Below are positions 10,250-50,060 of a stretch of DNA of 64,000 nt, in pieces. Source of the stretch: Chloroflexota bacterium (lineage in GTDB: Bacteria; Chloroflexota; Anaerolineae; Anaerolineales; VGOW01). The DNA is taken from the NCBI GenBank assembly GCA_016875735.1, contig VGOW01000008.1, positions 21,183 through 85,182 of the forward strand. Reading direction: 5' to 3'. Both the position numbers and the translations under genes were made by a program. Position 1 is the stretch's first letter. The number at the start of each line of letters is the position of its first letter. The notes under the pieces were generated by a model. That model was not told the origin of the DNA, searched no databases, and saw only the letters and a list, made by a program, of their open reading frames with translations.

Positions 10250-10278
10250 AATATAGCAGGCTAAACAGGGAGCGTCAA
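10250..10278 (-). promoter_or_regulatory. sigma70-type promoter of the thiamine operon
   Basis: Minus strand TTGACG, 17 nt, TATATT, about 15 nt upstream of the aptamer. The -35 overlaps the HEPN stop codon. Confidence 0.6.
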
Positions 10279-10673
10279 GCAGATTCTCCAGATTCGATCT
10301 TCTTGCTCACAAAAGCAAAGGCGTTCTTCGCCTGCTGGTAAAATGCTCGGCCTTCTTCTTTCGTTGGTTCAAGCGGAATGTCGGTGGGATAGCGTCCTTC
10401 AACTGCGAACGGGGTTAGGTCAGCGATTTCCGATTCGAGTTCGGCTAAATCGGGATCGGCGTTGATGCACAAATCGAGCAAGTAACCGAGATCATGTCGG
10501 AAGAGAAAGGGAACATCCTGCGCGGTGAGAAATGCTTTCAGGCTTTTTTCGACCGCCTGCTGACAGTGGAACGCCAGTATCGCGATCGGATACTCTTCGA
10601 AGGTTTGAAGCATTTCGGCGGCGGTGAGGTCGGCTTTAGCCCGGGTCAGCCACTCGTTGGCTTTGGCGCTCAT
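10275..10673 (-). CDS. HEPN domain protein (toxin of an MNT-HEPN pair)
   Basis: MSAKANEWLTRAKADL...AVEKSLKAFL...RHDLGYL pattern; 132 aa from ATG 10673. Confidence 0.8.
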   Translation of the reverse strand: MSAKANEWLTRAKADLTAAEMLQTFEEYPIAILAFHCQQAVEKSLKAFLTAQDVPFLFRHDLGYLLDLCINADPDLAELESEIADLTPFAVEGRYPTDIPLEPTKEEGRAFYQQAKNAFAFVSKKIESGESA

Positions 10674-10983
10674 AGAGGACTTTTCCGGTTTTGAGAATGT
10701 AACTGAGAAAGGATTGCGGATCTTTGACGCAAGCGCGCACCTCGGCAGGCGTGTAAGCGAGAATGTCAATCGGAAACGTGCGCGGGCGCAGGGCGCGGCT
10801 AATCATTTCTTGCCGCTTATCACGCCGCAGATTGGACTCCAACACGACGAGCAAATCAATGTCACTTTCCGGCCTTGCCTCGCCTCCCGCATACGAGCCG
10901 AACAAAACGATCTTTTCGGGCCGAATGCGCTCGACAAGGATTTGGCGAATCTGATGTAAACGCTGTTCCTGCTCAGTTGTCAT
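10636..10983 (-). CDS. minimal nucleotidyltransferase (MNT) domain protein
   Basis: LFGSYAGGEARPESDIDLLVV is the classic GSx(n)DxD nucleotidyltransferase motif. Directly upstream of, and overlapping, the HEPN ORF. Confidence 0.85.
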   Translation of the reverse strand: MTTEQEQRLHQIRQILVERIRPEKIVLFGSYAGGEARPESDIDLLVVLESNLRRDKRQEMISRALRPRTFPIDILAYTPAEVRACVKDPQSFLSYILKTGKVLYERQSQRVADPG

Positions 10984-11056: not shown

Positions 11057-11836
11057 TCACCTCATCCTCCGCTTCCACTCGTCTTTCAACTCTAAACTCG
11101 TCAAATCCTTTGCTTCGAGAAAGTCGGCGAGGAGGCGGTGGAATTTGGGCGGGTCGTCGAGCATGGGGAAGTGGCGGCCATCCTCAAAGATGATCTGGTG
11201 CAGGTTGGGGCGAGCGCCGTTGAGGGCTTCGTCGGCAGGCAGGGCGATGGCTTCGTCGCGCTCGCCGTGCACCAGCAGGGTGGGGGCAGTGGTTTGGTTG
11301 AGATCGGCGGTGAAGTCGGCTTGACTCAAATAGTCGAAAGAGGTTTGGATAGCGGTGGGATCGAGTTTGCGCGTTTCGGCGAGGAGCTCATCACTGCCGG
11401 GCGCTTTGCCCACCAGCCAATCGAGGAGCGCGGCGACGTTGGACGAGGCCAAGCGGGGTTTGATGGCCGCACCGTTCAGCGGCATGTTGATGGTCATCAA
11501 CCGCGCCACCATTTGAGGATTCTGGCTGGCGAATCGCAATGCCACCGCGCCGCCGAGCCCGTGCCCCACTAGCGCCAGTTTTGCCACGCCGAGATGATCC
11601 ATGAATTTGGCGATCAGTTCGACTTGCGAGTCGAGGGAGTAGTTGGCCGATTTTTTGCCCGAGTCGCCGAAGCCCCACAGATCGATGGCGTAGGTGCGAT
11701 ACTTTGTGGAGACGGCCTGCATGATGGGAATCCAATAACGCCACGAGCCGAGCCAGCCGTGGACGAAGAGGATGCCCGGGCCGCGCCCCAGCACTTCGTA
11801 GTGAACAATGTCGTCGTTGATGACGAGTGCGCTCAT
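11057..11836 (-). CDS. alpha/beta-hydrolase-fold protein with nucleophile Ser replaced by Gly
   Basis: HGWLGSW...WGFGDSGK...VGHGLGGAV (GxGxG instead of GxSxG; codon GGG at 11558-11560). The Asp (HGERDE) and His (GRHFPMLD) positions are retained. Paralog of 22821-23609. Confidence 0.85.
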   Translation of the reverse strand: MSALVINDDIVHYEVLGRGPGILFVHGWLGSWRYWIPIMQAVSTKYRTYAIDLWGFGDSGKKSANYSLDSQVELIAKFMDHLGVAKLALVGHGLGGAVALRFASQNPQMVARLMTINMPLNGAAIKPRLASSNVAALLDWLVGKAPGSDELLAETRKLDPTAIQTSFDYLSQADFTADLNQTTAPTLLVHGERDEAIALPADEALNGARPNLHQIIFEDGRHFPMLDDPPKFHRLLADFLEAKDLTSLELKDEWKRRMR

Positions 11837-11882: not shown

Positions 11883-12251
11883 TCACTTCTTTCCGAGAAT
11901 CTCGCTCACGCGCTTGATCAGTTGATCGGGCGCGAAGGGTTTGAGAATGTAATCGGTGGCGCCCACTTCGAGTCCGGTTTGGATTTCGGTTTCCTGGCCT
12001 TTGGCCGAAAGAAAGACGACGGGGATGTGTTTGAGTTTGTCGTCGGCTTTCAAATGGCGGCAGGCCTCGTAGCCGGTCATCTTCGGCATCCGCACGTCCA
12101 TCAGAATCAGGTCGGGCAGGAGATCGCGTGTCATGGTAACGGCCTCTTCGCCGTTGGCGGCCTGATGCACGTCGTGCCCGGCGTACTTGAGGGTGAAGGT
12201 GACAAGATCGCGGATGTCGCGCTCGTCTTCGGCTATCAGAATTTTTGCCAT
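11883..12251 (-). CDS. single-domain response regulator (receiver)
   Basis: MAKILIAEDE...LILMDVRMPKMTG...SAKG...DYILKPF; 122 aa from ATG 12251. Confidence 0.9.
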   Translation of the reverse strand: MAKILIAEDERDIRDLVTFTLKYAGHDVHQAANGEEAVTMTRDLLPDLILMDVRMPKMTGYEACRHLKADDKLKHIPVVFLSAKGQETEIQTGLEVGATDYILKPFAPDQLIKRVSEILGKK

Positions 12252-12276: not shown

Positions 12277-15200
12277 TTACGCCGCCGATTCGTTCCCGGA
12301 CGCCAGCTTGAGCCGCACAAAAAAAGTGCTGCCGTGCCCGATGCCTTCGCTTTCAACCCAAATGCGTCCGCCGTGCATTTCCATCAGCCGCTGCACGATG
12401 CTCAGGCCCAAGCCCGTTCCCGATGAAGCCATCACCAACGGGTCTTCGCCGCGATAGAAACGCTCGAAGATGCGGATCTGATCTTCGGGCGCGATGCCGA
12501 TGCCGGTGTCTTTCACGGCAATGAGCAGGGTGTCGCCGTCGCGCCGCGCCGAGAGGGTGACAGCGCCCTCCGGGTGCGTGTAAGTGAAGGCGTTGTCGGC
12601 CAGATTGGTGATGATCTGCGTCAGCCGCTGTCGGTCGCCGAGCGCTGGCGGCAGGCCCGGCTCCACATCGACGATCACTTTCATCGGCTTCTCTTGCGCG
12701 GTGATGCGCCCGTGCAGATGATTGGACACGTCTTCGAGCACATCGGCGACGGAGAGAGGCTCAAGGTTCAATTCTACTTTGCCCGACTCCATCTTGGAAA
12801 TGTCGAGCAGATCGTCCACCAAAATTTTCAAGCGGTCGGCATTAGTCTTGATGAGTTCGACCGCTCGTTGCTGATCGGGCAGAAGGGGCCCGGCCATGCC
12901 CATGAGCAGAATATCGGCGTAGCCTTTGATAGGTGTGATGGGCGTGCGCAGTTCGTGGCTCACCGTCGTCACGAACTCGGTCTTCAGCCGATCGACTTCG
13001 ACTTCGCGGGTGATGTCGCGGAAGATGGACACGGTGCCGAGATATTCGTCGGCGGTCGTCACCGGAGCGAGCAGCACCGACACAATGCGATTGTCTTCGA
13101 GGTTGAGCTGCTCGGAGATGTATTCGCCGGGCCGATACGTCGAGGGATCGGCGCTCCATTTGTCGATGGTGTCGGAGAGGGATTGGGCGCGCGCGCCGTA
13201 GAGCCCCATAAAATCTCTCACCGGATGCCCCAGCGCTTCATCGCGGTTGAGTTTGAGGATGCGCTCGGCGGTGGCGTTGAAGAGGGTGATGTTCCCATAG
13301 GCGTCCGACACAAGCACGCCGTCGGCCACCGATTCGAGGATGGCGCGGCTCTTGGTTGCCTCCACTTGATTGGCGCGCAACATGCCGCCCAGCCGCTCGG
13401 CCTGATCGCGAATGAGGCGGTAGAGCTCGGCGTTGTTGATGGCCGACGTGACTTGATTTCCGGCGGCGGTCACCATCCGCAGTTGATCGATGTTGAAGGC
13501 GTCTTTCACATCGCTGAGGAAGAGCATCGCGCCCAAGCAGTCTTCGCTCGAAAGGAGAGGTACGCAGAGGGCCGAACGATATGCGCCATCGAGAGGCTGT
13601 TGCCGCCAGCGCGAGTCGGTTTCGAGATCGGAGGCGATGGCCGACTCCTGCGAATTGATCACCCAGCCCACCAATCCCTCGCCCCGCCCAAACCCGGCCG
13701 GTTGCCCGCCGGGCGGCAGGTGCATTTCATGGCCGAGCGTGGCGCGATGAATGAGCTGAGTCGTCTGGGGTTCGACGAGGAACAGATCGGCGCGCGCGCC
13801 GCCGATCACGTCGTTGACGAGGCCGAGCGCGCGAGTGAGCACGCGGTCGAGATCGAGGCTGGCTGACAACTCGCTGGTGATGCGCAGCAGAGTCTCCACG
13901 CGGTCGCGCTCTTTCTCCAGCGCGGCGGTGCGCTCGGCCACGCGCTGTTCGAGGCTAGCCGCATAGTTTTGCACGGTGGTGAACAGCCGCGCATTCTCCA
14001 GCGCAATGGCCGCCTGATTGCCAACCTGACTCAACAACCTTAACTGCCCGGCGCTGAATCGGTTGGGCTCGGTGCTCTGCACCAACACCGCGCCGATCGT
14101 CCGTCCGCGCACCAACAGCGGCACACCCAGCCATGAGCGGGCAAGGTCGCCGCGGTTGTATCCGGCCACCGGAAATTTGTCTTTCTGCACATCGCCGATG
14201 AGGAGCGGTTGGCCCGAATTGATGATGTGCTCGCTGAATGAACTGCCCGTGCGCGGAATCTTGAACGGCTCCAGCCGCCGGCCTTTTTCGACGGCTTCGG
14301 CCAGGATCTCGTTGGCCTCCGTCACTTGAACCAGCGCCACCGAATCGGCCCCCAACAATTTTCGCACGTTGTCAAGGGTGACATCGATCAGCCGCGACTC
14401 TTCCAGCACTTGCGAGGCGCTCACGCCGAGATCGAACAGCGCGGCCAACTCGGCGTTGCGCTGGCGGGTTTCGGTGAGCAGGCGCTGGGTTTCTTCGTAG
14501 AGCCGCGCATTCTGAACGGCGACGGCGGTTTGATTGGCAATCGTCTGCGCCACTTCGATTTCGCCGAGCCGGAAACGCGGCCCGTCGGCTTTGCGCTCGA
14601 TAGCCAGGCTGCCCAGCAATGAGCCGCCAGCCGTCAGCGGCACCACTAACATTGTTTTGGCGCCTCGGTTCACCAATTGCAGGCGCGCCGCCGGTTGCAG
14701 TGATTCCGAAAGGGCCACATCGTCGATCACGATGGGGGCCATTGTTTCCCGCAGGCGCTGGGTCACCGACTCGTCTTGGGTGATCGGGCCGAGCAGATCG
14801 GCGGGAGCGGGTTCTTGCAGGCGTTCGGTCATCCCGTGCGCGGCCGAAGCGGACTCGCCGTCGTATAGTGTGGCCGTTGTGTGCGCTCCGCCCATGGCGC
14901 TGCTCATCTCGCGCACCGAAATATCGAGGATGCGGTTGAGGTCGAGCGTGCCGCTCAATTCGCCCGAAACACGATTAAGCAAAACGAGGCGCTGGGTGCG
15001 TTCGTTGAGCTGCATGGCCCGCTGGACACTTTGCTCGAATAACTGGGCGTTGTCGAGGGCCACCGCCACTTGGTTGGCAAAGGCAATGACGAGGTCGGCG
15101 TGATTGGCGGTGTAGAAGTTGGCTTCCACTTTGTCGAGCGCCAGCAGGCCCATCACTTTGCCTTTGCTGATGAGCGGCCCGCCGAGCCACGAGCGTGTGC

Positions 15201-18200
15201 GGCTGATCATGCCCGCCGGGAAACGTGGATCGTTTCGCACATCGGGCACGAGGATGGGGTGGCCGGTGGCGGTCATCTCCTTGAAGAGGGCGCTGTCTTC
15301 CACCTGCACGATTAATCCCAATTGCTCGGCGTCGTTCTCGAAGCCGCGCGCGCTCGCCACGCGCAGGAAATTTTCTTCGTGCAGCAGCCACAGGGTGGCG
15401 CTGTCGTACGGCACCACGCGCCCCACTTGATCGAGCACGAGGGCGATGACGTTTTCTTCGCGCAGGGCCGACGACATGACTCGCGAGGCTTCGGTGAGGG
15501 CTTGCAGTTGGGTGGCTCGTTCGCGCACGTCGGCTTCCAAATGCGCGCGCTCGGTCACGTCGTCCACCAACAGCACCACGCCGGTCACTTTGCCGTCGCG
15601 CCGGAGCGGGTAGCCATAGAAGTTGCTGACGATGAGCGATCCGTCGGGCGCGGAGTCGCGGACGCCGAAGCGCTCGACGGGGCGGTCGTACACGACGGCT
15701 TGAATGACGGAGTCGGCCAACCCTACGTCGCGGTAATACGAACGGAACTCGAACAGGTTTTGGCCGACGAGGGAGTCCGCCCATCCGAATCGTTCCCGCA
15801 TCCAGCCGTTGATGCTGAGCACTTTGCCTTCGGTGTCGAGGACGACGAGGCCCTGCTGGAGCGATTCGAATACGGAGGCGCTGAACTCTTGCAGTTCGCG
15901 GGTGGCGTTGAAGAGGCGGGTGTTGTCGGCGAGGCGTTGTTGGATTTCGGTGTAGAGGCGGATGTTTTCGAGGCTGGCGCCGATTTGCCCGCTGAGGATG
16001 GTGAGCAGATCGATGTCTTCGGTGGAGAAGGGGGTGGGCTCTTTTTGGCTGCCGACGAGCAGTGCGCCGCTGAGCTGTTGAGCCATGAAGATGGGCACGC
16101 CGACGAAGGATCGGATTTGCAGGCTCTGCACTAGTTTGGAGTCGCTCCAGCCGTGCAGGTCGCGGGCGAGGATGGGCGAATGGATCTCGATGATGTGCGA
16201 GAGGGGGTTGCGTTCGGCGAGGAGTGGGTTGAGATCGATGCCGGGGTTGGTGACCGAAGCCTGCGCGGTGACTTGCAGTATCTGCCCGTCTTTGAGCAGA
16301 GCGACGACGCAGGCATCCACGCTTATTTCGACGACGGTGGAGCGGGCGGCGCGATGGAGCAGGGCGTTTTCGGCGCGGGCTTCGGCGGTGGTGCTGGCGA
16401 TGCGGTGGAGGCCGAGCAAGCGGCGGGCGCGCAGTTCAGTCTGCTCGATGAGGTCGCGCAGTTCCTGTTCTTTGCGGCTGAGGGTGCGTGAGACGAGGTC
16501 GAGATCGCGGTACGACTTTTGCAGGTCGTCGAGGCTCTTGCTCAGTTCGGCGGCGCGGCTTTCGGCGGCGATGAAGAGCCGGGCGTTTTCGATGGCCAGC
16601 GCCGCTTGGTTGGCGAAGATTTCCAGAGTCTCGATGATGGCCAGATCGGGGGCGAGACCGCTGCGCGGATCGTCCACCGACATCATGCCCACCGTTTGGC
16701 CGCCGGAGCCGATGAGCGGCACGAACAGAAAATCGTCTTGGTGCCATTTGTTCGAGGCCGTTGGCTCTTCGGCTTGGGGGATGATGACTGCGTCCAACTG
16801 CATGAGTTCTTTGGGGGCGCGGGTGTGGGGCACGTAATACGATTGGCTGATTCGAAATTCGCGTTGCAGTGCGGCGCGGATGTCGTCGAGACGGGCGGGG
16901 GTTTGTTGGAGGCGGTTGAATTCGGCGATGGGCAGGCCGGCGGCGGCGGTGCGGTGGAGGAGTCCGGTGTCCGAGTCGTATTCGCTGATGAGCACCACGT
17001 TGAAGCCGACGGCTTCTTGCACGCCGTAGGCGATGGCTTCGAGGTTGACAGCCAGCAGGCGGTCGGAGCGGACGGAGCGCGAGATTTGCAGGAGCTGCGA
17101 GAGTTGATCGGCGCGGCGGCGCAGAAGTTCGCCGCGGCGTTTTTGTTCTTCGTACCGTTGAGCGTTGCCCACGGCGATGGCGGCTTGGGCGGCGACGGCT
17201 TGCGAGAAGTCGAGCATGGCGCGGTCGAAGCCGTTGGCGCGGCGGCTGTGCAGTTCGACGACGCCGACGATGGAGCCTTCGTAGGAGATGGGGGTGACGA
17301 GCAGTGAGCGAATTCCGGCGTGGCCGGGCGCGGCCAGCGGCGCGTAATGTTCGGGCGGGATGGCGGCCAGCGCATCGGGGGCGGCGAGGTCGGCGATGAG
17401 GTGGGTGTTGCCGCTGAGGGCCACGTCGAATTCTATCGAGTCCAAAGCCAAGTTGCTGTTGTGATCGCCGATGCGGAGGCGGGCAGCGGGGATGGTGGAT
17501 TCCAAATTGAGGAGGACGATGCTTCCGCAATCGGCGCGGGTGGCGCGCACGGCTTCGTTGTAAACGAGTTTGAGGATGTGATCGAGTTCGAGCGTTTGAT
17601 TGAGTTCGCGGCCCACGCGGGTGAGGGCGGTGAGCTGCTCGACGCGGTGGCGCAGGGTTTCATCGGTGGCCGAGGCGAGGCGGGTGCGCTCGATGGCCGA
17701 GGCCAACTGCGCGGCGACGGTGGCGACGAGTTGAACGTCGCTCCGCGAGAACCGTCGTTCGTAACGAGAGCCGAGCCACATTTCGCCGATGCTGCGATCT
17801 TGCACGATGAGCGGCGCAGTGATCACGGTTTCGATCTGATAATGCTCGACTATTCGGCGGTGCAGTTTGGTGATGCGCCGGTCGTGGCTGGCTCGCCACG
17901 AATAGAAGGGTTTGCGGGTGGCGGTGCTGCTCAATTTGAAGTCGGGGTCGTCACTGCGCAGGGTGGCGAACTCGGCTTCGCCCACGCCGCCGCCGAGCTC
18001 CGACCCGCGCTGGGGCGCGAGTTCGCCTTTGGCTTCGTCGAGCAGGAGCACCACACCGAGTTCGGCTTGAATCAGCCGGGCGGTGCGTTCCATCACGCCC
18101 TGATAGATTTGTTCGAGGCTCAACGCCGAGCCGGTGATCTCTGCGATCTGCCTCATCACTTCGGCGTGGCGGACCCGGTCTTCGGCTTCGCGCACGAGGC

Positions 18201-19671
18201 GGGCATTGTCGATGAGCACGGCGGCCTGCCCGGCCAGGGTTCTCAGCAGGCGCGCATCTTCGTCGTTGAAAAGAGTCTTGTTGAGTTTGTTGGCGACTTG
18301 CAGAACGCCCACGCGGTTGCCGCCGACGATGAGCGGCACCATCAGCGAAGCAGTCATGCCGATGGTTTCGGCTTGCTCCTTCAGCCCCAGTTCTTCGATG
18401 AGGGGATCGGCGCGCATGTCGTCGGTGCGCCAGTGATCGCCTTCGCGCCACAGCCGCGCCGATTTGTTGTCGGGCAGGACAGGGATGCGGTATCGCTCGC
18501 GCAGGGCTTCGGGCACGCCGCGAAACGGCGGCTGGCTCACCAGCGCGCGCTCGCCTTCGTCGAAAAGCAGAAAGCCGCACAACTGCACTCCGGCAAGTTT
18601 GGCGATGCTGTCCACGAGGCTGGCATAGAGTTCGCGCGGCTCGGCGAGGGTGGCGGCAGTTTGCGCCACTCGCGCCAACGCCGAAAGTTCGGCGATGCGC
18701 GATTCTTGCTGGGCGTACAACTGCGCGTTGCGAATGGCGATGGCCGCCTGCCCGGCCACCGTTTCGAGCAGAGTCACGTCTCGATCCGAATACGCCTCTC
18801 GCTCGAAAGAAGCGAGTTCGACGGTGCCGATCAGTTCGCTATCTTTGCCGAACAACAAAGGGACGCCGACAACGGATCGGAACGGAAAATCGATGCGATC
18901 GATTTTTGGCTGAGCCTCAGCGTGGTGTTCGAGATCGTTGATGAGCAGAGGGCGTTTGTTGCGCGCGATCCAGCCGGTGAGGCCTTCGCCGATTTGGTAC
19001 GATTGCACGCGCCGCTCGAGGGCGATGATGTAGGTGCGGTCTCCGGCATGGGCGCGAGGCCACAGCACTTGTGAGTCGGAGTCCCACAGATTGATCTCGC
19101 CGATGTCGTAGCGGACGATGCGCCCCACTGTCTGTAAAACGGCGTTGAGGGTGATGTCGAGATTGAGGCTGGAGGAGAGGGCGCGCCCCACTTCGACGAG
19201 GGCGCCGACGGCTTCCGCCGAACGGTTATCGCCGCGCAGGCCGGTGAGCTGGCCGCCTTCACGCAGGGTGATGACGAATTGCTGAGGGTCGCCGGGTATG
19301 AATACGGAGGTGGCTTCGAGCGAGCGGTTGCCAATGGTGACGCTGGTTTGGCCCTCGGTGGCGAAGAGCTCGAGAAAGGCCTCCTGCGGCTGGGCCATGC
19401 GCGCCATGCGGTGAAGGTTGGGGGTTTCGCCGTTGAGGCCGAAGAGTTGGCGGGCGTGATCGTTGGCGTATTCCACCCGGCCGCCTTTGCGGGCGATGAC
19501 GACGGCGCTGTTGAGGCTGGCAACGTCGGGCAGGATCACCGGCATGGACTCGACGGCGGCGGGCGCGCGGGTGCGCGAGAGGGCGCGGGCGCTGAGGAAG
19601 ATCAGGCCGTAGAGCACGCCGCCGATGATGACGGCGGCGATCGCAATCCCAAAGATCGTTGATGTTGCCAT
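12277..19671 (-). CDS. giant sensor histidine kinase: N-terminal TM, about 10 GAF modules, PAS domains, HisKA, HATPase
   Basis: 2464 aa. Ten modules end in the recurring helix N-A-(R/Q)-L-(Y/F). H-box SHELRTPITPIKGY. C-terminal N, G1 and G2 boxes (DTGIGI, GTGLGLSIV). Confidence 0.92.
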   Translation of the reverse strand: MATSTIFGIAIAAVIIGGVLYGLIFLSARALSRTRAPAAVESMPVILPDVASLNSAVVIARKGGRVEYANDHARQLFGLNGETPNLHRMARMAQPQEAFLELFATEGQTSVTIGNRSLEATSVFIPGDPQQFVITLREGGQLTGLRGDNRSAEAVGALVEVGRALSSSLNLDITLNAVLQTVGRIVRYDIGEINLWDSDSQVLWPRAHAGDRTYIIALERRVQSYQIGEGLTGWIARNKRPLLINDLEHHAEAQPKIDRIDFPFRSVVGVPLLFGKDSELIGTVELASFEREAYSDRDVTLLETVAGQAAIAIRNAQLYAQQESRIAELSALARVAQTAATLAEPRELYASLVDSIAKLAGVQLCGFLLFDEGERALVSQPPFRGVPEALRERYRIPVLPDNKSARLWREGDHWRTDDMRADPLIEELGLKEQAETIGMTASLMVPLIVGGNRVGVLQVANKLNKTLFNDEDARLLRTLAGQAAVLIDNARLVREAEDRVRHAEVMRQIAEITGSALSLEQIYQGVMERTARLIQAELGVVLLLDEAKGELAPQRGSELGGGVGEAEFATLRSDDPDFKLSSTATRKPFYSWRASHDRRITKLHRRIVEHYQIETVITAPLIVQDRSIGEMWLGSRYERRFSRSDVQLVATVAAQLASAIERTRLASATDETLRHRVEQLTALTRVGRELNQTLELDHILKLVYNEAVRATRADCGSIVLLNLESTIPAARLRIGDHNSNLALDSIEFDVALSGNTHLIADLAAPDALAAIPPEHYAPLAAPGHAGIRSLLVTPISYEGSIVGVVELHSRRANGFDRAMLDFSQAVAAQAAIAVGNAQRYEEQKRRGELLRRRADQLSQLLQISRSVRSDRLLAVNLEAIAYGVQEAVGFNVVLISEYDSDTGLLHRTAAAGLPIAEFNRLQQTPARLDDIRAALQREFRISQSYYVPHTRAPKELMQLDAVIIPQAEEPTASNKWHQDDFLFVPLIGSGGQTVGMMSVDDPRSGLAPDLAIIETLEIFANQAALAIENARLFIAAESRAAELSKSLDDLQKSYRDLDLVSRTLSRKEQELRDLIEQTELRARRLLGLHRIASTTAEARAENALLHRAARSTVVEISVDACVVALLKDGQILQVTAQASVTNPGIDLNPLLAERNPLSHIIEIHSPILARDLHGWSDSKLVQSLQIRSFVGVPIFMAQQLSGALLVGSQKEPTPFSTEDIDLLTILSGQIGASLENIRLYTEIQQRLADNTRLFNATRELQEFSASVFESLQQGLVVLDTEGKVLSINGWMRERFGWADSLVGQNLFEFRSYYRDVGLADSVIQAVVYDRPVERFGVRDSAPDGSLIVSNFYGYPLRRDGKVTGVVLLVDDVTERAHLEADVRERATQLQALTEASRVMSSALREENVIALVLDQVGRVVPYDSATLWLLHEENFLRVASARGFENDAEQLGLIVQVEDSALFKEMTATGHPILVPDVRNDPRFPAGMISRTRSWLGGPLISKGKVMGLLALDKVEANFYTANHADLVIAFANQVAVALDNAQLFEQSVQRAMQLNERTQRLVLLNRVSGELSGTLDLNRILDISVREMSSAMGGAHTTATLYDGESASAAHGMTERLQEPAPADLLGPITQDESVTQRLRETMAPIVIDDVALSESLQPAARLQLVNRGAKTMLVVPLTAGGSLLGSLAIERKADGPRFRLGEIEVAQTIANQTAVAVQNARLYEETQRLLTETRQRNAELAALFDLGVSASQVLEESRLIDVTLDNVRKLLGADSVALVQVTEANEILAEAVEKGRRLEPFKIPRTGSSFSEHIINSGQPLLIGDVQKDKFPVAGYNRGDLARSWLGVPLLVRGRTIGAVLVQSTEPNRFSAGQLRLLSQVGNQAAIALENARLFTTVQNYAASLEQRVAERTAALEKERDRVETLLRITSELSASLDLDRVLTRALGLVNDVIGGARADLFLVEPQTTQLIHRATLGHEMHLPPGGQPAGFGRGEGLVGWVINSQESAIASDLETDSRWRQQPLDGAYRSALCVPLLSSEDCLGAMLFLSDVKDAFNIDQLRMVTAAGNQVTSAINNAELYRLIRDQAERLGGMLRANQVEATKSRAILESVADGVLVSDAYGNITLFNATAERILKLNRDEALGHPVRDFMGLYGARAQSLSDTIDKWSADPSTYRPGEYISEQLNLEDNRIVSVLLAPVTTADEYLGTVSIFRDITREVEVDRLKTEFVTTVSHELRTPITPIKGYADILLMGMAGPLLPDQQRAVELIKTNADRLKILVDDLLDISKMESGKVELNLEPLSVADVLEDVSNHLHGRITAQEKPMKVIVDVEPGLPPALGDRQRLTQIITNLADNAFTYTHPEGAVTLSARRDGDTLLIAVKDTGIGIAPEDQIRIFERFYRGEDPLVMASSGTGLGLSIVQRLMEMHGGRIWVESEGIGHGSTFFVRLKLASGNESAA

Positions 19672-19703: not shown

Positions 19704-20591
19704 TCAGTCCTTGTCATTCCGCCGCGCTTCGGCGGCCAACTCAGTGATCTCGCGGATATCGGAGATTTCTTGCTCGGCGGTGACGATGCCCACTTTCATG
19801 ATCATGAGCGGGGTCTGCACGTCGGCGTTGTCGTTTCCCCGACTCATGATGTAGCCCCGTTCCCGATCGATGAACGAGTAATGAGTTTTCACCTCATCGG
19901 CGAAGCGGGCTTTGAGGCGTTCGCGGATAACGGCGGCGGTGGTTTCGGAGGCGATGACGATGAAGTTTTCGCCGCCGGGGTGGCCGATGAAATCGTTGGG
20001 CGTGCCCAGTTCGTCCACCACTTCGCGGATGAGCAGGGCGGTGGCGCGCAGCACTTCATCGCTGGCGACGAAACCGTACACTTCTTTGAACGGGTTGAAC
20101 TGCTCGATCTTGCAGTCGAGGAAGGCCCAGCCGTTGGAGCGCATGAGTTTGCGCAGTTCATCTTCGATGAGGCGGCCCGAAGGCAGGCCGGAGCGCGGGT
20201 CGGAAAGGTTTTCGCGTTGGGCGCGGGCGATGGCGTTTTGCACCCGCAGTTTTAGTTCTTCGATGTCGAATGGTTTTGTAATGTAATCGTCGGCGCCCAA
20301 TTCCAACCCGGCGATGCGGTCGGAGCGCTCATCTTTCTGGGTGAGGAAGATGATGGGGATGTGGCTGGTGCGGATGGTCTGCCGCAGCTGGCGGCAAACG
20401 GAGTAGCCATCCATATCGGGGAGCATGATGTCGAGGATGATCAAGTGCGGCAACTGCTGGCGGGCGGTGTTGAACGCCTCGCTCCCGCGAGGGGCCACCA
20501 TCACGTCATACCCCTGGCCGCTGAAGTAAATCCTCAGCATGTTGGAGATGTCGAAATCGTCCTCTACGATCAGAATTCTGCCTTTTGCCAT
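19704..20591 (-). CDS. response regulator with degenerate GGDEF-like output domain (GGENF)
   Basis: Receiver (ILIVEDD...ILDIMLPDMDG...TQKD...DYITKPF) followed by a GGDEF-fold region with HPGGENFIVIA instead of GG(D/E)EF. Confidence 0.88.
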   Translation of the reverse strand: MAKGRILIVEDDFDISNMLRIYFSGQGYDVMVAPRGSEAFNTARQQLPHLIILDIMLPDMDGYSVCRQLRQTIRTSHIPIIFLTQKDERSDRIAGLELGADDYITKPFDIEELKLRVQNAIARAQRENLSDPRSGLPSGRLIEDELRKLMRSNGWAFLDCKIEQFNPFKEVYGFVASDEVLRATALLIREVVDELGTPNDFIGHPGGENFIVIASETTAAVIRERLKARFADEVKTHYSFIDRERGYIMSRGNDNADVQTPLMIMKVGIVTAEQEISDIREITELAAEARRNDKD

Positions 20592-20667: not shown

Positions 20668-21951
20668 TCACCACGACTGTTTCGCCGCCTCTCCGGCGCG
20701 CGGATACAGGCGCTCGTGCCGGCCGGCGGCCTTGAGCGTGTGGTGATCGCTTTCCTCATACGAAATGTTTTTGGCGATCACTCGCCGTTCCGGCGAGGCA
20801 AACAACACCACGTCGGACTCAATCGTCCGCGCCGGGTAAATAATCATGCCGCTGCCGATGCGGCAGTTGTGACCCACACAGCCGCCCAAAACGGGCCGGT
20901 TCGACTCTTCCAGCGCCCCCGCGCCGCTCAACGCCCGGATGGGCGCCGGGATGAGGTTGTAATCGGTGAAGGTGTTGCCCGCGCCGATGAAAGTGTTGCG
21001 CCCGATGACGCACATTTGCAGGCAGGTGTTCTGCGCCACCATCGAGTTCTCCATCAACGTCGTGAGATAGAGGGCGGCGCGGAAAGGCAAAAACGATCCG
21101 TCGCCAACGACGCTGAGCATGAGTTGGCAGCCCTGCGAAATGGTGACGTTGCTGCCGATGATGCAGTTGTCGATGACTGCGCCCGGCTCGATCACCACGT
21201 TATCGCCGATGGTGGTGGGTCCCAAAATGACGGCGGCGGGATGGATACTGCAATTGCGGCCCACGCTGACCAGTTTGGAACACGCCAGCACTTGCCTCTG
21301 CTCCAGCAGGGCTTGCCACAACACTTGCATTTTGAAAGTGAGACTCTGGGCGATCTTCAAATCGGTGCGGGAGGCGCGGCTGAAGAGGCCAAAGATGGCG
21401 TCGGCGATAAAGATGTGCGTCCAGCTTTCGATGGACATGCAGCTGCGAAGCGGCACCTGAAAAGTGAGCTGGCCTTTCTCGGTGGCCATGTATTCGGGGA
21501 TGCGGTAATAGCCAATCTCCCTCGGCTCGAAGTCAATCACCAACGGCTGGGCGCCCGACACTGGCCCGCGCGGGAAATACCACAGATCGGCCAAATAGAG
21601 ATCGCCCACTTGAGTGTAGCCGTGCGCGAGGGGCAGGGCGTGCTGCATGAAGGCTTTGTTATCTTTGCTGATGGCGGCCCGGCGCGGCTTCCCCGACCGA
21701 ACGGCCTCGGCGAAGAAGGCATCAATGTATGGCTTGTCGAAGAACAGATTGTCGCGGTACACAATCTGCTCCACCGGGTCGGGCGGCACTTCGACAAACG
21801 AACCGGAGTCGACTTCCCGCTCTTCGGTGGTGTACGGCGCGAGCAGATCGCGTTGGTGCAGCCACAGCGGCTTGTTTTGGATTCGCAGATCGCGCGCCGG
21901 TTCGTTGAACGGCGAAATGAAATTCTTGTTTTGGAGGATGACTTTGCGCAT
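20668..21951 (-). CDS. left-handed beta-helix (hexapeptide-repeat) protein, putative sugar nucleotidyl/acyl-transferase-like
   Basis: The C-terminal half has repeated [LIV]-G-x-x-x-x hexapeptides (IGDNVVIEPGAVIDNCIIGSNVTISQGC...). The N-terminal about 230 aa carries no motif I recognise. Confidence 0.75.
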   Translation of the reverse strand: MRKVILQNKNFISPFNEPARDLRIQNKPLWLHQRDLLAPYTTEEREVDSGSFVEVPPDPVEQIVYRDNLFFDKPYIDAFFAEAVRSGKPRRAAISKDNKAFMQHALPLAHGYTQVGDLYLADLWYFPRGPVSGAQPLVIDFEPREIGYYRIPEYMATEKGQLTFQVPLRSCMSIESWTHIFIADAIFGLFSRASRTDLKIAQSLTFKMQVLWQALLEQRQVLACSKLVSVGRNCSIHPAAVILGPTTIGDNVVIEPGAVIDNCIIGSNVTISQGCQLMLSVVGDGSFLPFRAALYLTTLMENSMVAQNTCLQMCVIGRNTFIGAGNTFTDYNLIPAPIRALSGAGALEESNRPVLGGCVGHNCRIGSGMIIYPARTIESDVVLFASPERRVIAKNISYEESDHHTLKAAGRHERLYPRAGEAAKQSW

Positions 21952-22152: not shown

Positions 22153-22185
22153 AAAAAAAGCCGCTCGGTTTCAGTCGAGCGGCTT
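22153..22185 (-). terminator. strong intrinsic terminator closing the PATAN-GTPase-hydrolase-V4R operon
   Basis: Minus strand GCCGCTCG-ACTGAAAC-CGAGCGGC followed by TTTTTTT. The V4R stop codon lies in the loop. Confidence 0.8.
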
Positions 22186-22809
22186 CTTGTCAATGACGAT
22201 GGTGCAGGCTTCGTCGCCCCGGGCGATGCAGGCCACCTCCTGCGCGGTGAAGTTCTTTCCGCCGCTCACCCAATAGAGCGACTCTTGAAGGATGCCGACG
22301 GCCAAATGGCAGCAGGGGATTTCGGTTTGGCGGCCCCAGCAAATGGGGCAGCGCTCGTTGTGCCAATAGATTTGATCTTCATCGTCGCTGAGGCGCACAC
22401 GCTGATCGGTGTATTTGTTGAACGTGTCGGCGAACACTTCCGCGCCCACTTTGAGTTTCATGTTCAGCGGCAGAAGCCGGAAGGCCAGATCGGCGATGCC
22501 CAGCACCGGGCCGAATTCTCTGAGGCCATATTTGAAGCAGGCTCGCCCGGCGCGCAGGGCCAGCCCGCGCCCGCCGCGCGGCCCGTACATGTCGTCGAGC
22601 GATTGCATGATCGCGCCAATGTCCTCGAAGCGAAACTGCCGGTCGAAGTTGTTGGGCGGGTAGTTGTTGATGAGGTGCCTCATCTTGGCTAAGTTGAGCA
22701 CCGCGTTCACGCCGTTGCGCCCCATGATCTCTTCCATGGCCAGCAAAACGATGCGCCCCATTTTGTTGGGGTAGTGATATTGCTGCTGTACGGCTTCGGG
22801 CTGAGTCAT
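22171..22809 (-). CDS. V4R (4-vinyl reductase) domain protein
   Basis: C-terminal Cys-rich signature CPICWGRQTEIPCCHLAVGILQESL...AQEVACIARGDEACTIVI, typical of V4R. Confidence 0.8.
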   Translation of the reverse strand: MTQPEAVQQQYHYPNKMGRIVLLAMEEIMGRNGVNAVLNLAKMRHLINNYPPNNFDRQFRFEDIGAIMQSLDDMYGPRGGRGLALRAGRACFKYGLREFGPVLGIADLAFRLLPLNMKLKVGAEVFADTFNKYTDQRVRLSDDEDQIYWHNERCPICWGRQTEIPCCHLAVGILQESLYWVSGGKNFTAQEVACIARGDEACTIVIDKKPLD

Positions 22810-22820
22810 AAGAGGCGGCC

Positions 22821-23609
22821 TTAACTGTCGAGAAAATTCTTGAGCACGGCGTTGAAAGTTTCCGGCTCGTCGATCATGGGGAAGTGGCGCGACCCGCGCA
22901 GGACTTCGATCTGCGCGTGCGGCACCCCGGCCTTCAGCGGCTCGTACTGCTTGGGGTGAACGATGGTGTCGCCGACTCCGTACACGCCGAGCGTAGGCAC
23001 GTTCACTTCGTTCAATCGCGGGCGCAGATCGGTGCGGCGCAAACTGCCGATGGAAGCGAAGAATGATTCCAACGTGGTCTTCGACAGATCGCGCTCCAAC
23101 GCCCGATACCAGGCCAGCGGCTCTTTGTTGACGATGAACGGCGAGAACGACCGCACCGCCAGCCGCAGCGCCGAGGGCATGTTGTAGACTACAAAGGCGA
23201 TGGCCCGGTATCCGGCCAGCCGCAAAAAGATGTTGAGCGACGAGCCGACGATGGGCGACCCGACCACCACTACTTTTTGCACGCGCTCAGGGTAGCGCAT
23301 CGCCACGCTCAGGCTCACGGTGCCGCCCATGCTGTGGCCCACCAGCGGCGCCGAGGCGATGCCGAGCTGGGCCATGAACTGATCGACGAGACTCACGAAA
23401 TCGGAGACGGCGTAGGTTTGCCGCTTCTTCCCCGAATCGCCGAAGCCCCAAAAGTCGAGCGCGTAGGTTCGGTAACTGCGCCCCAGTTCTTCCATCGTTC
23501 TCTGCCATAAGCCCCACGACCCGAGCCACCCATGAAGGAGCACCACAGGTTTGCCCTGACCATAGGTTTCGTAGTGAACGATTCCCTGATCGGTGACGAT
23601 TGAACTCAC
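22821..23609 (-). CDS. alpha/beta hydrolase (intact catalytic triad)
   Basis: HGWLGSW...WGFGDSGK...VGHSMGGTV, with a later GVGD and RHFPMIDEP. GTG at 23609 is chosen; the ORF-track ATG at 23681 overlaps the GTPase gene. Confidence 0.85.
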   Translation of the reverse strand: MSSIVTDQGIVHYETYGQGKPVVLLHGWLGSWGLWQRTMEELGRSYRTYALDFWGFGDSGKKRQTYAVSDFVSLVDQFMAQLGIASAPLVGHSMGGTVSLSVAMRYPERVQKVVVVGSPIVGSSLNIFLRLAGYRAIAFVVYNMPSALRLAVRSFSPFIVNKEPLAWYRALERDLSKTTLESFFASIGSLRRTDLRPRLNEVNVPTLGVYGVGDTIVHPKQYEPLKAGVPHAQIEVLRGSRHFPMIDEPETFNAVLKNFLDS

Positions 23610-23631
23610 GTGTAAATGTTCTTTCCAGCGG

Positions 23632-24165
23632 CTAGGCTTCCATCTCCGCCAGAATGCTGTAGAGCAGTTCGAGCAAAACACTCTTCACTGTTTCTTTTCG
23701 GGTGGCCACGCACGGCAGCAGTTTGATGTTCGGGTCGAGGCGCAGGGCGATGCGCAAGTCGTCGATAGACCATGCTTCGGGGTGGTCCTGTTTGTTGGCG
23801 GCCACCACGTAGGGGGTGGGGGCGTAGGCGCGGAACGTCTCTAAAATGCTTTTCGCTTCGCGGAAGGTTTCGGGCCGCGAACTGTCCACCATCACCACAA
23901 ACCCCAACATGCCTTCGGAAAGAATCTCCCACATGAAATCGAAGCGGCGCTGGCCCGGCGTGCCGAACAAATACAACACCAGATCGTTGTCCACAGTGAT
24001 GCGGCCAAAGTCCATTGCCACGGTGGTGCTGTCTTTGATCTTCTCGGCGTCCGACGAGATTTTCCGTTCGGTGGCCACGACGTCGATCTCGCTGATGGAG
24101 CGGATGAACTGCGTTTTGCCCGAACTGAACGGCCCGGTGACGACCATTTTGACTGATTGCGGCAT
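23632..24165 (-). CDS. small Ras-superfamily GTPase (MglA/CvnD-like 'ATP/GTP-binding protein')
   Basis: G1 GPFSSGKT, G3 variant FGTPGQ, G4 NKQD; 177 aa. Confidence 0.88.
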   Translation of the reverse strand: MPQSVKMVVTGPFSSGKTQFIRSISEIDVVATERKISSDAEKIKDSTTVAMDFGRITVDNDLVLYLFGTPGQRRFDFMWEILSEGMLGFVVMVDSSRPETFREAKSILETFRAYAPTPYVVAANKQDHPEAWSIDDLRIALRLDPNIKLLPCVATRKETVKSVLLELLYSILAEMEA

Positions 24166-24183
24166 GAGGCTACTTCGTGGCGA

Positions 24184-25002
24184 TCACAATGAACGGATGC
24201 GCGAAATGAGTTTGTTGACCAATGATTTCTCTTGCTCTTTGGCGGCCTCGGTTTTGGGCTTGCGCTGGGGCAGGGCGCCGGTTTGAACGGTGGGGCGCAC
24301 CACTTCCACCAGCCCGGCTTGCAGCAGGCCGTACACGATCCGCCGGATGTCGAGGTCGCTTAAGTTGTTGGCTTTGGCAATCTGCCGAATGGAGTTCTTG
24401 GGATTGATATAGGAAACGACGCGCCACTCTTCCACGCTGAGGTTGACGTTTTTGAGCCGCGCGTCGGGCTTGTCGGTGAAGCGGAGGGCCATGTCGAGGT
24501 TGGGCAGTTCTTCCTGCAGTTGCTCCCACTCTCTCATGCGCCGCGTGCCTTCGATGATCACGTTCTCCAAATCCACCGACACAGTGATGCGTTCGACCGG
24601 CGGCGCAAGATCCGCCTCGAAATTGAACATGCCTTCCACCCACGTAAACAGGCGAAAGGCCACGTCGATGATGTGTTGGCGGATGCCCTGAAGAATCTCG
24701 GCTTGGGTGACGTATCCGGCGTTGATGAGCAGAAGGCCGAGCGCTTTATCGTTGGCCGCCTCCGGGCGCCGGCGCAGTGCGCGAGTCTGTTCGTCGTTGA
24801 GTTTCCCGGCCTTGCGCAGAATAAAGGCCAGGCTGGCGTCCTCACTGCCGAGTTGGGCGAACACCAACTTGCCCTCGCGGAAGGCCATGCGCGCCGCCTC
24901 GGTAGGGCCTTCAATCGTCAGCGTGCCAGATTTGCGTGCAAGATTGATGAGGTTGAGCAATTGAGTGGTGCTAAAATCTCTCAGGTTGCCTCGAAGTGGC
25001 AT
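24184..25002 (-). CDS. DUF4388 (PATAN) domain protein with C-terminal wHTH-like region
   Basis: N-terminal GNLRDFSTTQLLNLINLARKSGTLTIEG...FREGKLVFA signature. C-terminal LSVEEWRVVSYINPKNSIRQIA...IVYGLLQAGLVEV. Confidence 0.8.
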   Translation of the reverse strand: MPLRGNLRDFSTTQLLNLINLARKSGTLTIEGPTEAARMAFREGKLVFAQLGSEDASLAFILRKAGKLNDEQTRALRRRPEAANDKALGLLLINAGYVTQAEILQGIRQHIIDVAFRLFTWVEGMFNFEADLAPPVERITVSVDLENVIIEGTRRMREWEQLQEELPNLDMALRFTDKPDARLKNVNLSVEEWRVVSYINPKNSIRQIAKANNLSDLDIRRIVYGLLQAGLVEVVRPTVQTGALPQRKPKTEAAKEQEKSLVNKLISRIRSL

Positions 25003-25077
25003 GTATCCCTCGACCCAGAATGATTCTCAGCGATGAACTGCGAAACGCGAGCGGGATTATACCTGTAAGCCCGATAA

Positions 25078-26355
25078 ATGCAAAACTCAGCGATGCGCCG
25101 ATTGATTTTTTTGCCTGCTCTCGCGTGGATAGCCGTTGCCTGCGCGCGCGACTCGGCCCCCGCCACCCTCGTCGTCCCCATCCCCTCCTCCGCCGCGACT
25201 CCGACACTCCCTTTCATCGAACCGACTCTCATCCCCTCAACCCCTCATCCCCTCGCTTTGCCCTCCACCCAAACTCCAACTCCAACTCTCACTCTCACCC
25301 CAGTCCCCACCGGACAAATCGGCCCCTTCAGTTTCCCGCTCGATGTCAATCCGCTCACCGGAGAGACGGTGTCCGATCTGGCGGTGTTGAATCGGCGACC
25401 ACTGGCGATCAAAGTCTCCAACTATCCCTCGTGTGTGCGCCCACAGTCGGGCCTCTCGCTGGCCGATCTCGTCTTCGAGCATTACGCCGAAGGCCCCACC
25501 ACTCGCTTCACCGCCATCTTCTACAGCCACGACGCTCCGTTGGTTGGCTCGGTGCGCTCGGCGCGGCTCATCGATCTCGAAATCCCGGCGATGTATCAAT
25601 CGCTGTTCGCCTTCTCCGGCGCAAGCTCCGGCGTGCTGAACAAACTGAAGGAAGCCGACTTCAAAGATTGGATTCTCTCGCCGGAGTTCGAGCCGGGTCA
25701 CGATGCCTTCTTTCGCGTGCCCATCGAGTCGCTCGCGGCGGAATGTCAAGCATTGGAGCATACCCTGTTCACCAGCGCCGATCGTTTGTGGGCCGACGCC
25801 GATGCCAAAGGCGTGAACGTCCGCCCGGCCATTCTGGGCATGGCCTTCAACGGCGAGCCGCCGTCCGGCGGCCTGCCCGCCAAGATCGCTTCACTCGCTT
25901 ACGATGGCGAATACGTGCGCTGGACGTATAGCGAGACCGCCGGGCGTTACTACCGATACGCCAACGGACAACAGCACACCGACGCCCTCACCGAGTCGCA
26001 GATCATGGCCGCCAATGTTGTCGTGGTGTTTGCCCATCACGTGCTCACCGACATCCTCGAAAACACGTTTGGTTACGATCCGCGCACCGGCAGGGGCGGC
26101 AGTCACTCGATTGAGATTCAATTGTGGGGCACGGGGCCTGCGCTCGTGTTCCGCGACGGGCAAATGTATTCGGTGACGTGGTTGAGGCAGGATCGATTCG
26201 GGGTGCTGGGGTTGGTGGACTCCGCCACCGGGCAGCTGTTTCCGCTGAAACCGGGCAACACTTGGTTTCAACTTGCCCCGCTCGATTCGCCTCTCACCCA
26301 GCCCGAAGCGGAAGCGTGGGAAGTTGCGCCGACGCGGCTGATAGAGACGCCGTGA
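25078..26355 (+). CDS. DUF3048 (YerB-like) lipoprotein
   Basis: Signal peptide/lipobox (AVAC). Conserved block PLAIKVSNYPSCVRPQSGLSLADLVFEHYAEGPTTRFTAIF...VRSARLID. Confidence 0.85.
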   Translation: MQNSAMRRLIFLPALAWIAVACARDSAPATLVVPIPSSAATPTLPFIEPTLIPSTPHPLALPSTQTPTPTLTLTPVPTGQIGPFSFPLDVNPLTGETVSDLAVLNRRPLAIKVSNYPSCVRPQSGLSLADLVFEHYAEGPTTRFTAIFYSHDAPLVGSVRSARLIDLEIPAMYQSLFAFSGASSGVLNKLKEADFKDWILSPEFEPGHDAFFRVPIESLAAECQALEHTLFTSADRLWADADAKGVNVRPAILGMAFNGEPPSGGLPAKIASLAYDGEYVRWTYSETAGRYYRYANGQQHTDALTESQIMAANVVVVFAHHVLTDILENTFGYDPRTGRGGSHSIEIQLWGTGPALVFRDGQMYSVTWLRQDRFGVLGLVDSATGQLFPLKPGNTWFQLAPLDSPLTQPEAEAWEVAPTRLIETP

Positions 26356-26656: not shown

Positions 26657-26741
26657 AAATCGTTCTGCACCGTTCCTGCGAGTGTTGCGCTTGCGTTGCG
26701 CCGTAACCCGACTATACTTGACCGAGATTACTGGAGGAACT

Positions 26742-27101
26742 ATGACCGACCTTTCTCGCAAAGACGTGATCATGATCTTGGCCGCCACTCAAAACGCCCG
26801 GCTCGCTGGCGTCGATCTATCGGGCTTGGATTTGAGCGGCCTGAATTTCGCGGGCGCAGATTTGATCCGCGCCAACCTCTCCGGCGCAAACCTCACCTAT
26901 GCCCACATGCGCCACACCCAGCTCGAAGACGCCAACCTCGAAGGCGCAGTGCTGGTCAACGCGAATCTCAAAGAAGCGAATCTCAAAGGCTGCAAGATCA
27001 AAGGCGCGAACTTGAGCGGCGCGAACTTGACCGACGCCAACCTCTTCGGCGTTGAACTCGACCCGACTCAAAAAAGCCACGCCAAAGGCCTCCCATATTA
27101 G
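26742..27101 (+). CDS. pentapeptide-repeat protein
   Basis: GGAGG upstream of ATG 26742. Tandem A(D/N)LxG pentapeptides (LSGLDLSGLNFAGADLIRANLSGANL...). Confidence 0.85.
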   Translation: MTDLSRKDVIMILAATQNARLAGVDLSGLDLSGLNFAGADLIRANLSGANLTYAHMRHTQLEDANLEGAVLVNANLKEANLKGCKIKGANLSGANLTDANLFGVELDPTQKSHAKGLPY

Positions 27102-48076: not shown

Positions 48077-48135
48077 GAAGGATGAAGGGGGAGTGGCAAG
48101 TAGCAAGTGGCAGGTGGCAAGTGTTGATGGAAGGG
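48076..48135. repeat. heptamer array (GTGGCAA words)
   Basis: gaaggatgaaggggga gtggcaa gtagcaa gtggcag gtggcaa gtg. Related arrays at 31208-31245 and 36046-36087. Confidence 0.65.
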
Positions 48136-49038: not shown

Positions 49039-49109
49039 AGTAAACGATTAAGCGCGTATCAAGTTGGCATGAAACAGCCTGATAGGAATTGCGGCCAGCG
49101 AAGGCATCT

Positions 49110-50050: not shown

Positions 50051-50060
50051 ATCAGGATGA

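Follow-up and report, generated by a model that had tools for sequence, protein, structure and literature searches.

A PATAN-GTPase-hydrolase-V4R operon as a candidate half of a two-operon signalling system in Anaerolineae

Roadblock proteins, and in some cases PATAN proteins, are known partners of prokaryotic Ras-like GTPases, and to our knowledge the signals that feed into these GTPases are mostly unknown outside Myxococcus. A stretch of 64,000 nucleotides from an Anaerolineae genome (Chloroflexota bacterium, assembly GCA_016875735.1, contig VGOW01000008.1, positions 21,183 to 85,182; hereafter the window) carries an operon in which such a GTPase is encoded together with a PATAN (DUF4388) protein, an alpha/beta-fold serine hydrolase and a V4R protein. 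An initial annotation, made from the DNA sequence alone, regarded this operon as a GTPase module without Roadblock. This raises the question as to whether the GTPase really does without such a protein, or whether its regulator is encoded outside the window. We favour the latter possibility: with a probability of roughly 55%, the locus is one half, the one with the GTPase, of a signalling system that is divided between two operons and conserved throughout the class Anaerolineae. This system most likely relies on a Roadblock protein encoded elsewhere in the genome, as we infer from the gene order of related loci.

The four genes lie on the minus strand at 24184..25002 (PATAN protein, 272 amino acids), 23632..24165 (MglA-family small GTPase, 177 amino acids), 22821..23609 (hydrolase, 262 amino acids, GTG start) and 22171..22809 (V4R protein of group A, termed V4R_A, 212 amino acids). 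They were delimited by open reading frames (ORFs) and by gene calls made independently on three further contigs with the identical V4R protein, with products of 272, 177, 262 and 212 amino acids. Because of these calls we place the hydrolase start at the GTG at 23609; the longer hydrolase ORF, reaching 23681, is not the gene as called on the three contigs. The spacers of 18, 22 and 11 nt given in the initial annotation agree with ORFs, sequence and gene calls, and the strong terminator that it described is equally well supported. This intrinsic terminator (22153..22188, minus strand) has a 13-bp stem, an 8-nt loop containing the V4R stop codon and a U-run, and its hairpin folds with -22.5 kcal/mol (z = -4.9), a value equalled by 0 of 200 shuffles; a simple terminator scan overlooked the hairpin at the V4R stop, and folding detected it. 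A sigma-70-like promoter candidate (25056..25084, minus strand; TTTGCA, 17 nt, TATAAT) lies 54 nt upstream of the PATAN start and has 10 of 12 consensus matches. It is the sole such site in the region, and since one is expected there by chance, it counts for little as evidence of a promoter. None of the four proteins has a specific equivalog in NCBIfam, and Rfam gave no credible match for the operon or for the conserved spacer between GTPase and hydrolase in relatives.

As to Roadblock, the initial annotation was right about the window and probably wrong about the system. Pfam searches of 145 window ORFs of 88-200 amino acids found neither Robl_LC7 nor DUF742, the absence of the latter having also been claimed, and two Roadblock hidden Markov models (HMMs) built from relatives found no Roadblock among all window ORFs of at least 40 amino acids. 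The real small genes among the 145 ORFs encode pentapeptide, receiver, MaoC, HEPN/nucleotidyltransferase, IS200 transposase and GTPase proteins. About 66 of 70 orthologous clusters also lack a local Roadblock gene. In the other four, by contrast, a Roadblock gene is found between the GTPase and hydrolase genes; it is divergent at three loci (L036, L038 and L040; Pfam Robl_LC7 E-values of 1.4e-3 for L036 and 4e-6 for L040) and canonical at the fourth (L076; 5e-21). A weak Roadblock-HMM match at L017 was not confirmed by Pfam.

A profile of distant V4R relatives led to a second V4R group (V4R_B), about 48-55% identical to the window V4R, and to a second operon. In four look-ups, V4R_B directly followed a Roadblock gene every time, and it was followed in turn by a response regulator in three cases and by a GT2 glycosyltransferase in all four. 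This operon B thus comprises Roadblock, V4R_B, a regulator with receiver and pseudo-GGDEF domains and a polyprenyl-phosphate-type GT2 glycosyltransferase. Its Roadblock protein is highly conserved (77-91% among five copies aligned), and the L076 Roadblock, which is 77% identical to it, belongs to the same group. A metagenome scan with the operon-B Roadblock gave more than 574 stretches, of which 80 loci were kept. At these loci the Roadblock next to V4R_B is 77-96% conserved, and V4R_B follows it in 60/63 cases, with GT2 present in 34/38 and the regulator in 27/38. A GTPase gene is lacking in 79 of the 80. The sole exception, L123, has Roadblock, V4R_B, regulator, GT2, PATAN, GTPase and hydrolase genes contiguously on one strand. 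The GTPase-only operon (operon A) and the Roadblock-only operon are therefore complementary and, together with L123 and L076, point to one split system. The two V4R groups separate cleanly: all 80 V4R proteins of operon-A loci favour the window V4R over V4R_B, by 61 to 188 bits, and all 70 of operon-B loci favour V4R_B, by 79 to 242 bits. Between the operons, identity is 48% for the V4R proteins and likewise 48% for the regulators, so that V4R and regulator look like a duplicated unit. The genome to which the window belongs probably carries operon B as well.

How widely is operon A conserved? The V4R protein has thousands of relatives, and all of those with a taxon name are from Chloroflexota. 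In a scan of one genome per GTDB species with a closer V4R alignment as query, relatives were found in 389 genomes, and the loci were from Anaerolineae only. For species-level synteny counts we used the best 80 loci of the 389 genomes (62-85% V4R identity), which stem from Anaerolineales, Thermoflexales, Ardenticatenaceae and Promineifilaceae and cover at least four orders, and counted a partner only where the contig extends far enough to show it. On this basis V4R_A is accompanied by PATAN in 62/66 loci, the GTPase in 70/74, the hydrolase in 70/77, a left-handed beta-helix (LbH) protein in 68/73, a response regulator in 62/67 and a histidine kinase in at least 49/65, and a further hydrolase follows the kinase in 18/22. 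Overall, about 70 of 77 species-level Anaerolineae genomes retain the order of the four genes. The co-conservation of the four genes is thereby established, and because LbH protein, regulator, kinase and second hydrolase share the synteny, the co-conserved unit exceeds four genes. A contig with 71% V4R identity has the same gene order by Pfam labels, and a published table for Anaerolinea thermolimosa has DUF4388, GTPase, hydrolase and glmU-like genes in a row (PMC8756737). The V4R protein can be regarded as a genuine partner of the GTPase system, as had been proposed initially.

The spacer between GTPase and hydrolase measures 250-780 nt in several loci vs. 22 nt in the window. Among the long spacers without Roadblock we noted a conserved element (L039:8680-8900, L041:8850-9050 and L074:8870-9070; also in L044, L053/L054 and L058) with a GC-rich hairpin (GGTCGAAC...GTTCGACC), the motif AACTGTAACC..TTTAACGGAAnTGCAATGrTTTCTCAAT and a TATAcT-like box. 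It has no Rfam match and, judging by its sequence, resembles a terminator with a regulated promoter behind it. One such pair of loci (L053 vs. L054) concerns taxonomy: the cluster of a contig labelled 'Archaeoglobales archaeon' (QMZE01000099.1) recurs on the Thermoflexia contig DUEK01000003.1, the translated spacers differing by one residue in 163 amino acids. QMZE01000099.1 is most likely a binning contaminant in an archaeal metagenome-assembled genome.

The GTPase matches the Pfam models ATP_bind_1 (7e-18), Arf (2.5e-8) and Ras (9.5e-8), the latter two above their gathering scores. Its motifs, G1 GPFSSGKT, an Asp-less G3 GTPGQ and G4 NKQD, are invariant in 71 orthologues. Among PDB entries, Asgard Arf 8oul (2e-8) scores better than MglA 3t12 (4.7e-6 over residues 5-174). 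The distance from GKT to TT (residues 47-48) is about 28 residues, counted by eye; over the corresponding G1-G2 stretch Ras has about 17. MglA-family GTPases have a G1-G2 insertion relative to eukaryotic and archaeal GTPases (PMC4316618), MglA has Thr78 where Asp is canonical (PMC3000849), and Group 5 of the family has been reported in Chloroflexi, occasionally beside PATAN genes (PMC4316618). With GTPGQ instead of DxxGQ and a PATAN neighbour, the protein fits the MglA family, in line with its initial description as MglA/CvnD-like; G1, G4, the Asp-less G3 and sequence similarity all agree with this assignment, whereas an adjacent Roadblock gene is lacking.

The V4R protein scores 28.2 bits (E 2e-6) against Pfam V4R (PF02830), below the gathering score of 31; its orthologues and paralogues reach 35-43 bits, above that score, and the fold search agrees with the assignment. 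Its name in the sources is 4-vinyl reductase. The AlphaFold2 model has a predicted local distance difference test score (pLDDT) of 92 and a predicted template-modelling score of 0.88. Foldseek matches it to H-NOX (template-modelling score, TM, about 0.6), PoxR 5fru, MopR 5kbe and Bet3/TRAPPC3, including a TRAPPII subunit; for Bet3, 1wc8 and 1wc9 give TM 0.65-0.67 (target-normalised), and 7e8t_C also matches. According to this model, the whole protein is predicted to have an H-NOX/PoxR/Bet3-like fold that is no closer to Bet3 than to the bacterial sensors H-NOX and PoxR/MopR. The relationship of V4R to Bet3, mentioned in the initial annotation, is in any case published, in a paper without mention of GTPases, Roadblock or operons (PMC2253512). 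At the sequence level, Pfam TRAPP gave no match for the V4R protein at E 0.01, so that membership of the TRAPP Bet3 family is not apparent from its sequence. Five conserved cysteines (Cys154, 157, 167, 194 and 202) align with the zinc-site region of MopR, and PoxR and Thor-TRAPPC3 have a comparable Cys zinc site (PMC10933270). The V4R subfamily also forms the C-terminal domain of TIR-V4R, protein kinase-TIR-V4R and CHAT-FHA-V4R fusions (P0147, P0152, P0179, P0222, P0244 and P0247). Because of these fusions to signalling domains we regard V4R as a probable sensor module; the domain arrangement suggests that the fusions themselves may be V4R-gated effector proteins of conflict or signalling type. 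In a third V4R context (L064:5701-11349; also L055, L063 and L070), two to three V4R paralogues have as neighbours a HAD hydrolase, a methyltransferase of PCMT type and a glycosyltransferase resembling MGDG synthase; no GTPase or Roadblock gene is found at these four loci.

The PATAN protein covers the full Pfam DUF4388 profile (PF14332; 1-122/122, E 2.4e-27, 95.8 bits vs. a cut-off of 25). Besides a helical insertion, it contains a winged helix of MarR type towards its C-terminus (around residues 175-250). A profile of 30 orthologues matches MarR 7kua (E 1.6e-3) and, weakly and in the helical insert, the PilB N-terminus (E 0.017). PATAN genes beside MglA and MglB are a published association (PMC4316618), which that paper also credits to Makarova 2006. 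The hydrolase matches Pfam Abhydrolase_1 (8.5e-32, 111 bits) and is intact, as stated initially: its Ser-Asp-His triad, with the nucleophile elbow GHSMGG, an Asp within GVGDTIV and a His within RHFPM, is kept in 71 orthologues. It has no close relative in the PDB, where the best matches are generic meta-cleavage-product hydrolases and arylesterases. At one locus (L009:9178-9976) a frameshift divides the cluster hydrolase between two ORFs (186 and 98 bits), reflecting either pseudogenisation or an assembly error. An analogy of V4R and hydrolase with BchJ and BchO of bacteriochlorophyll synthesis was considered and rejected, with the BchO model scoring 45 bits vs. a cut-off of 172; no photosynthesis genes were seen among the window genes scanned. 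Taken together, Pfam and the fold search uphold all four initial domain calls.

Further members of the syntenic block follow downstream of the operon, all on the minus strand. The LbH (hexapeptide) protein (20668..21951, 427 amino acids; Pfam Hexapep 3e-15, LbH_EIF2B 1e-11) is generic at the sequence level, and no domain was detectable in its N-terminal 220 amino acids; a role as an eIF2B-epsilon-like guanine nucleotide exchange factor (GEF) was rejected, the match being restricted to the beta-helix. The response regulator (19704..20591; Response_reg 1e-29, GGDEF 4e-10) combines a receiver with a degenerate GGDEF domain, in which GGENF replaces GG[DE]EF, so that an intact diguanylate cyclase site is absent; the motif varies among orthologues, and the operon-B paralogue has QLSSTEF at this position. 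A giant histidine kinase of 2464 amino acids (12277..19671; GAF, HisKA and HATPase domains in gene calls) contradicts the initial statement that the module has no kinase: the gene for this multi-GAF protein is on the same strand, 2.5 kb farther downstream, and its position is conserved in relatives. A stand-alone receiver protein (11883..12251, 122 amino acids; Response_reg 9.6e-31; gene calls on L167 and L168), whose gene starts 25 nt past the kinase gene, and a second alpha/beta hydrolase (11057..11836, 259 amino acids; Abhydrolase_1 3e-30) complete the series. PADLOC gave no defence-system match for PATAN, GTPase, hydrolase, V4R and LbH proteins, and a generic receiver-domain match for the regulator. 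In most A-type loci, LbH and regulator are separated by 1.1-2 kb with one or two genes that the window lacks; on the P0063 contig, a Shikimate_DH-like protein of 365 amino acids is encoded between LbH and regulator, and an unannotated gene for 337 amino acids lies between regulator and kinase, both of them also absent from the window.

Divergent to the PATAN gene is a gene for a DUF3048 protein (25078..26355, plus strand; Pfam DUF3048 1e-29). It is found upstream of PATAN in 32/60 related loci and is a loosely kept neighbour, probably outside the system. A second DUF3048 paralogue is encoded at 27222-28541; both proteins are lipoprotein-like, and a pentapeptide-repeat gene (26682-27101) lies between their genes. 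Elsewhere in the window, a low-GC region (48000-54300; 0.49-0.52 vs. about 0.60) with genes for an Eco57I-type restriction-modification methylase (50061-51629) and an 867-amino-acid T5orf172/GIY-YIG-like protein (51607-54210) was probably acquired horizontally as a restriction or defence island. A HEPN protein (10275-10769) adjoins a small ORF (window 10275-10983), and one of the small window ORFs matches the nucleotidyltransferase families NTP_transf_2 and Polbeta; if that match belongs to the neighbouring ORF, the two genes would form a HEPN/MNT-type toxin-antitoxin pair. Other small window ORFs match an IS200-like Y1 transposase and a MaoC dehydratase.

From these gene contexts we infer a working model, in which protein contacts, ligand, direction of control, output and the presence of operon B in this genome are all deduced. 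The GTPase would be a nucleotide switch whose GTP hydrolysis is controlled by a Roadblock dimer, as with MglB and CvnB, and in its GTP form it may engage the PATAN-winged-helix protein as effector or scaffold. Both V4R paralogues could be zinc-stabilised sensors of a small, probably hydrophobic molecule; with one tied to the GTPase and the other to Roadblock, they would make the switch ligand-dependent. The hydrolase might make or destroy the V4R ligand, and the GAF kinase and receiver proteins may add a phosphorelay input, as RomR does for MglA. The output could be synthesis of envelope glycans or lipid-linked sugars through LbH and GT2 proteins, or transcription via the winged helix; the envelope-glycan option is proposed because of two proteins, LbH and the polyprenyl-phosphate-type GT2, and because polysaccharide genes are found near operon B at one locus (L081).

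Several observations weigh against a single split system. Operon B was not found within the 64-kb window, and the occurrence of both operons in one genome was seen directly only at L123, plus the merged form at L076. The cluster is also separable into parts: hydrolase, V4R, LbH, regulator and kinase genes persist at L059 without PATAN and GTPase, two loci (L032 and L047) lack the hydrolase and retain PATAN, GTPase and V4R, the group-A-like V4R proteins of L055, L063, L064 and L070 have a different context, and in a subset of loci the conserved terminator- and promoter-like spacer parts PATAN and GTPase from hydrolase and V4R. In addition, the single-sequence structure model of the PATAN protein (pLDDT 42) is unusable, and the V4R ligand and the output of the system are guesses. 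Such separations would also be compatible with two unrelated units that are adjacent by descent, namely a PATAN-GTPase pair with a polarity or regulatory function, and a small-molecule pathway in which V4R is a substrate carrier, as proposed for BchJ, and the LbH protein an acyl- or nucleotidyl-transferase acting alongside the hydrolase. The spacer of 250-540 nt in some loci, the remnant at L059 and the V4R paralogues beside HAD, PCMT and MGDG-synthase genes at L064 all speak for this arrangement. Adjacency is kept, however, in at least four orders and even where PATAN identity has fallen to 46%, the window has spacers of 11-22 nt and a single terminator, the loci that have lost the hydrolase retain V4R with PATAN and GTPase, a V4R paralogue is independently tied to Roadblock, and the BchO model falls far short of its cut-off. 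We therefore consider two unrelated neighbouring units to be an unlikely explanation.

The reading of the initial annotation, i.e. that the GTPase is truly free of Roadblock and that V4R, alone or with PATAN, took over the role of GEF or GTPase-activating protein (GAP), draws on the Roadblock-less window, the approximately 66 of 70 clusters without a local copy, the near-constant position of V4R_A two genes from the GTPase and its Bet3-like fold. This reading appears improbable, given the Roadblock genes inside four orthologous clusters, the close linkage of V4R_B to a Roadblock operon that has no GTPase, and the joining of the operons at L123; that GTPase and Roadblock are orphans in complementary operons favours a single split system. 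Moreover, Bet3-fold subunits of TRAPP do not act alone but jointly with longin subunits, and TRAPP uses several Bet3-family subunits. In a more far-reaching proposal, V4R_A and V4R_B (Bet3 fold) and a Roadblock dimer (longin-related) would form a multisubunit platform with GEF and/or GAP function that acts on the MglA-like GTPase. The genomic linkage seen here brings together the three fold types found in the TRAPP core and its client, and the two V4R paralogues recall the multiple Bet3-family subunits of TRAPP. An Asgard study found no such operon linkage, the small-GTPase genes being generally outside operons with Roadblock, longin or TRAPPC3 genes (PMC10933270). Against this platform, the V4R model fits Bet3 no better than it fits H-NOX and PoxR/MopR, Pfam TRAPP is not matched, and the TIR, CHAT and kinase fusions indicate a sensor role. 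That the TRAPP principle has a bacterial counterpart in Anaerolineae, in the shape of a ligand-sensitive V4R/Roadblock platform, is in our view a tentative idea and not a likely one. Were it true, this would be the first prokaryotic system with the V4R-Bet3 fold functionally coupled to a small GTPase, and a tractable experimental model for the origin of TRAPP-type regulators. The split signalling system, with V4R as a ligand sensor and Roadblock as the GTPase regulator, remains the reading that we prefer.

This split system resembles several known ones, and differs from each. It shares with MglA/MglB of Myxococcus xanthus and Thermus thermophilus (with RomR/RomX) a Ras-like GTPase with an Asp-less G3 (TVPGQ in MglA, GTPGQ here), what may be a G1-G2 insertion, a Roadblock partner in relatives, receiver proteins and PATAN neighbours (PMC4316618). 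In contrast to Mgl systems, Roadblock is non-adjacent in the window and in the majority of orthologous clusters, MglA itself is matched weakly (4.7e-6), no motility genes are nearby, and V4R (twice), hydrolase, LbH protein, GAF kinase and GT2 are partners unknown in Mgl systems. Actinobacterial conservons (CvnA-D, Mfp) likewise combine a histidine kinase, Roadblock and a GTPGQ-type MglA-family GTPase into a signalling unit, but the window has no DUF742/CvnC, its kinase is a non-adjacent multi-GAF protein and Roadblock, in relatives, belongs to another operon; conservons in turn have no PATAN, V4R or hydrolase, and the four-gene conservon unit is not present in the window. The PATAN regulators PatA, PixG, PixE and MXAN_3211 also have a DUF4388/PATAN domain with a helical insertion, whereas the window protein has a C-terminal MarR-like winged helix instead of a receiver domain. 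With the V4R domains of PoxR, MopR and XylR and with H-NOX, the window V4R shares the fold, the Cys cluster at the PoxR/MopR zinc-site position and a predicted role as ligand sensor, yet it is a stand-alone protein of 212 amino acids and not the N-terminus of a sigma-54 activator. Eukaryotic and Asgard TRAPPC3/Bet3 has a similar fold and, as predicted here, a functional context with a small GTPase and a longin/Roadblock-type protein; the difference is that there is no sequence-level TRAPP match and that the fold is no nearer to Bet3 than to H-NOX or PoxR. As in RsbQ-RsbP and KAI2/D14, an intact alpha/beta hydrolase gene lies beside one for a predicted small-molecule-binding signalling protein, but no specific similarity of the window hydrolase to RsbQ or KAI2 was seen.

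A full-text literature search, with subscription-only papers outside it, found no report linking bacterial V4R to Roadblock or an MglA-type GTPase, and the gene-order link between V4R, Roadblock and GTPase therefore appears unreported. The association of PATAN with MglA was already known; what appears to be new here is the link of V4R to Roadblock and GTPase, a link that the Asgard study reported not finding (PMC10933270). The locus illustrates that a partner missing from a window need not be missing from the system. The system is present in hundreds of Anaerolineae species, and in it V4R, from whose fold the TRAPP subunit Bet3 has been proposed to descend, is tied by gene order to a GTPase and its likely Roadblock regulator, which makes it a concrete candidate for ligand control of a bacterial small-GTPase switch.

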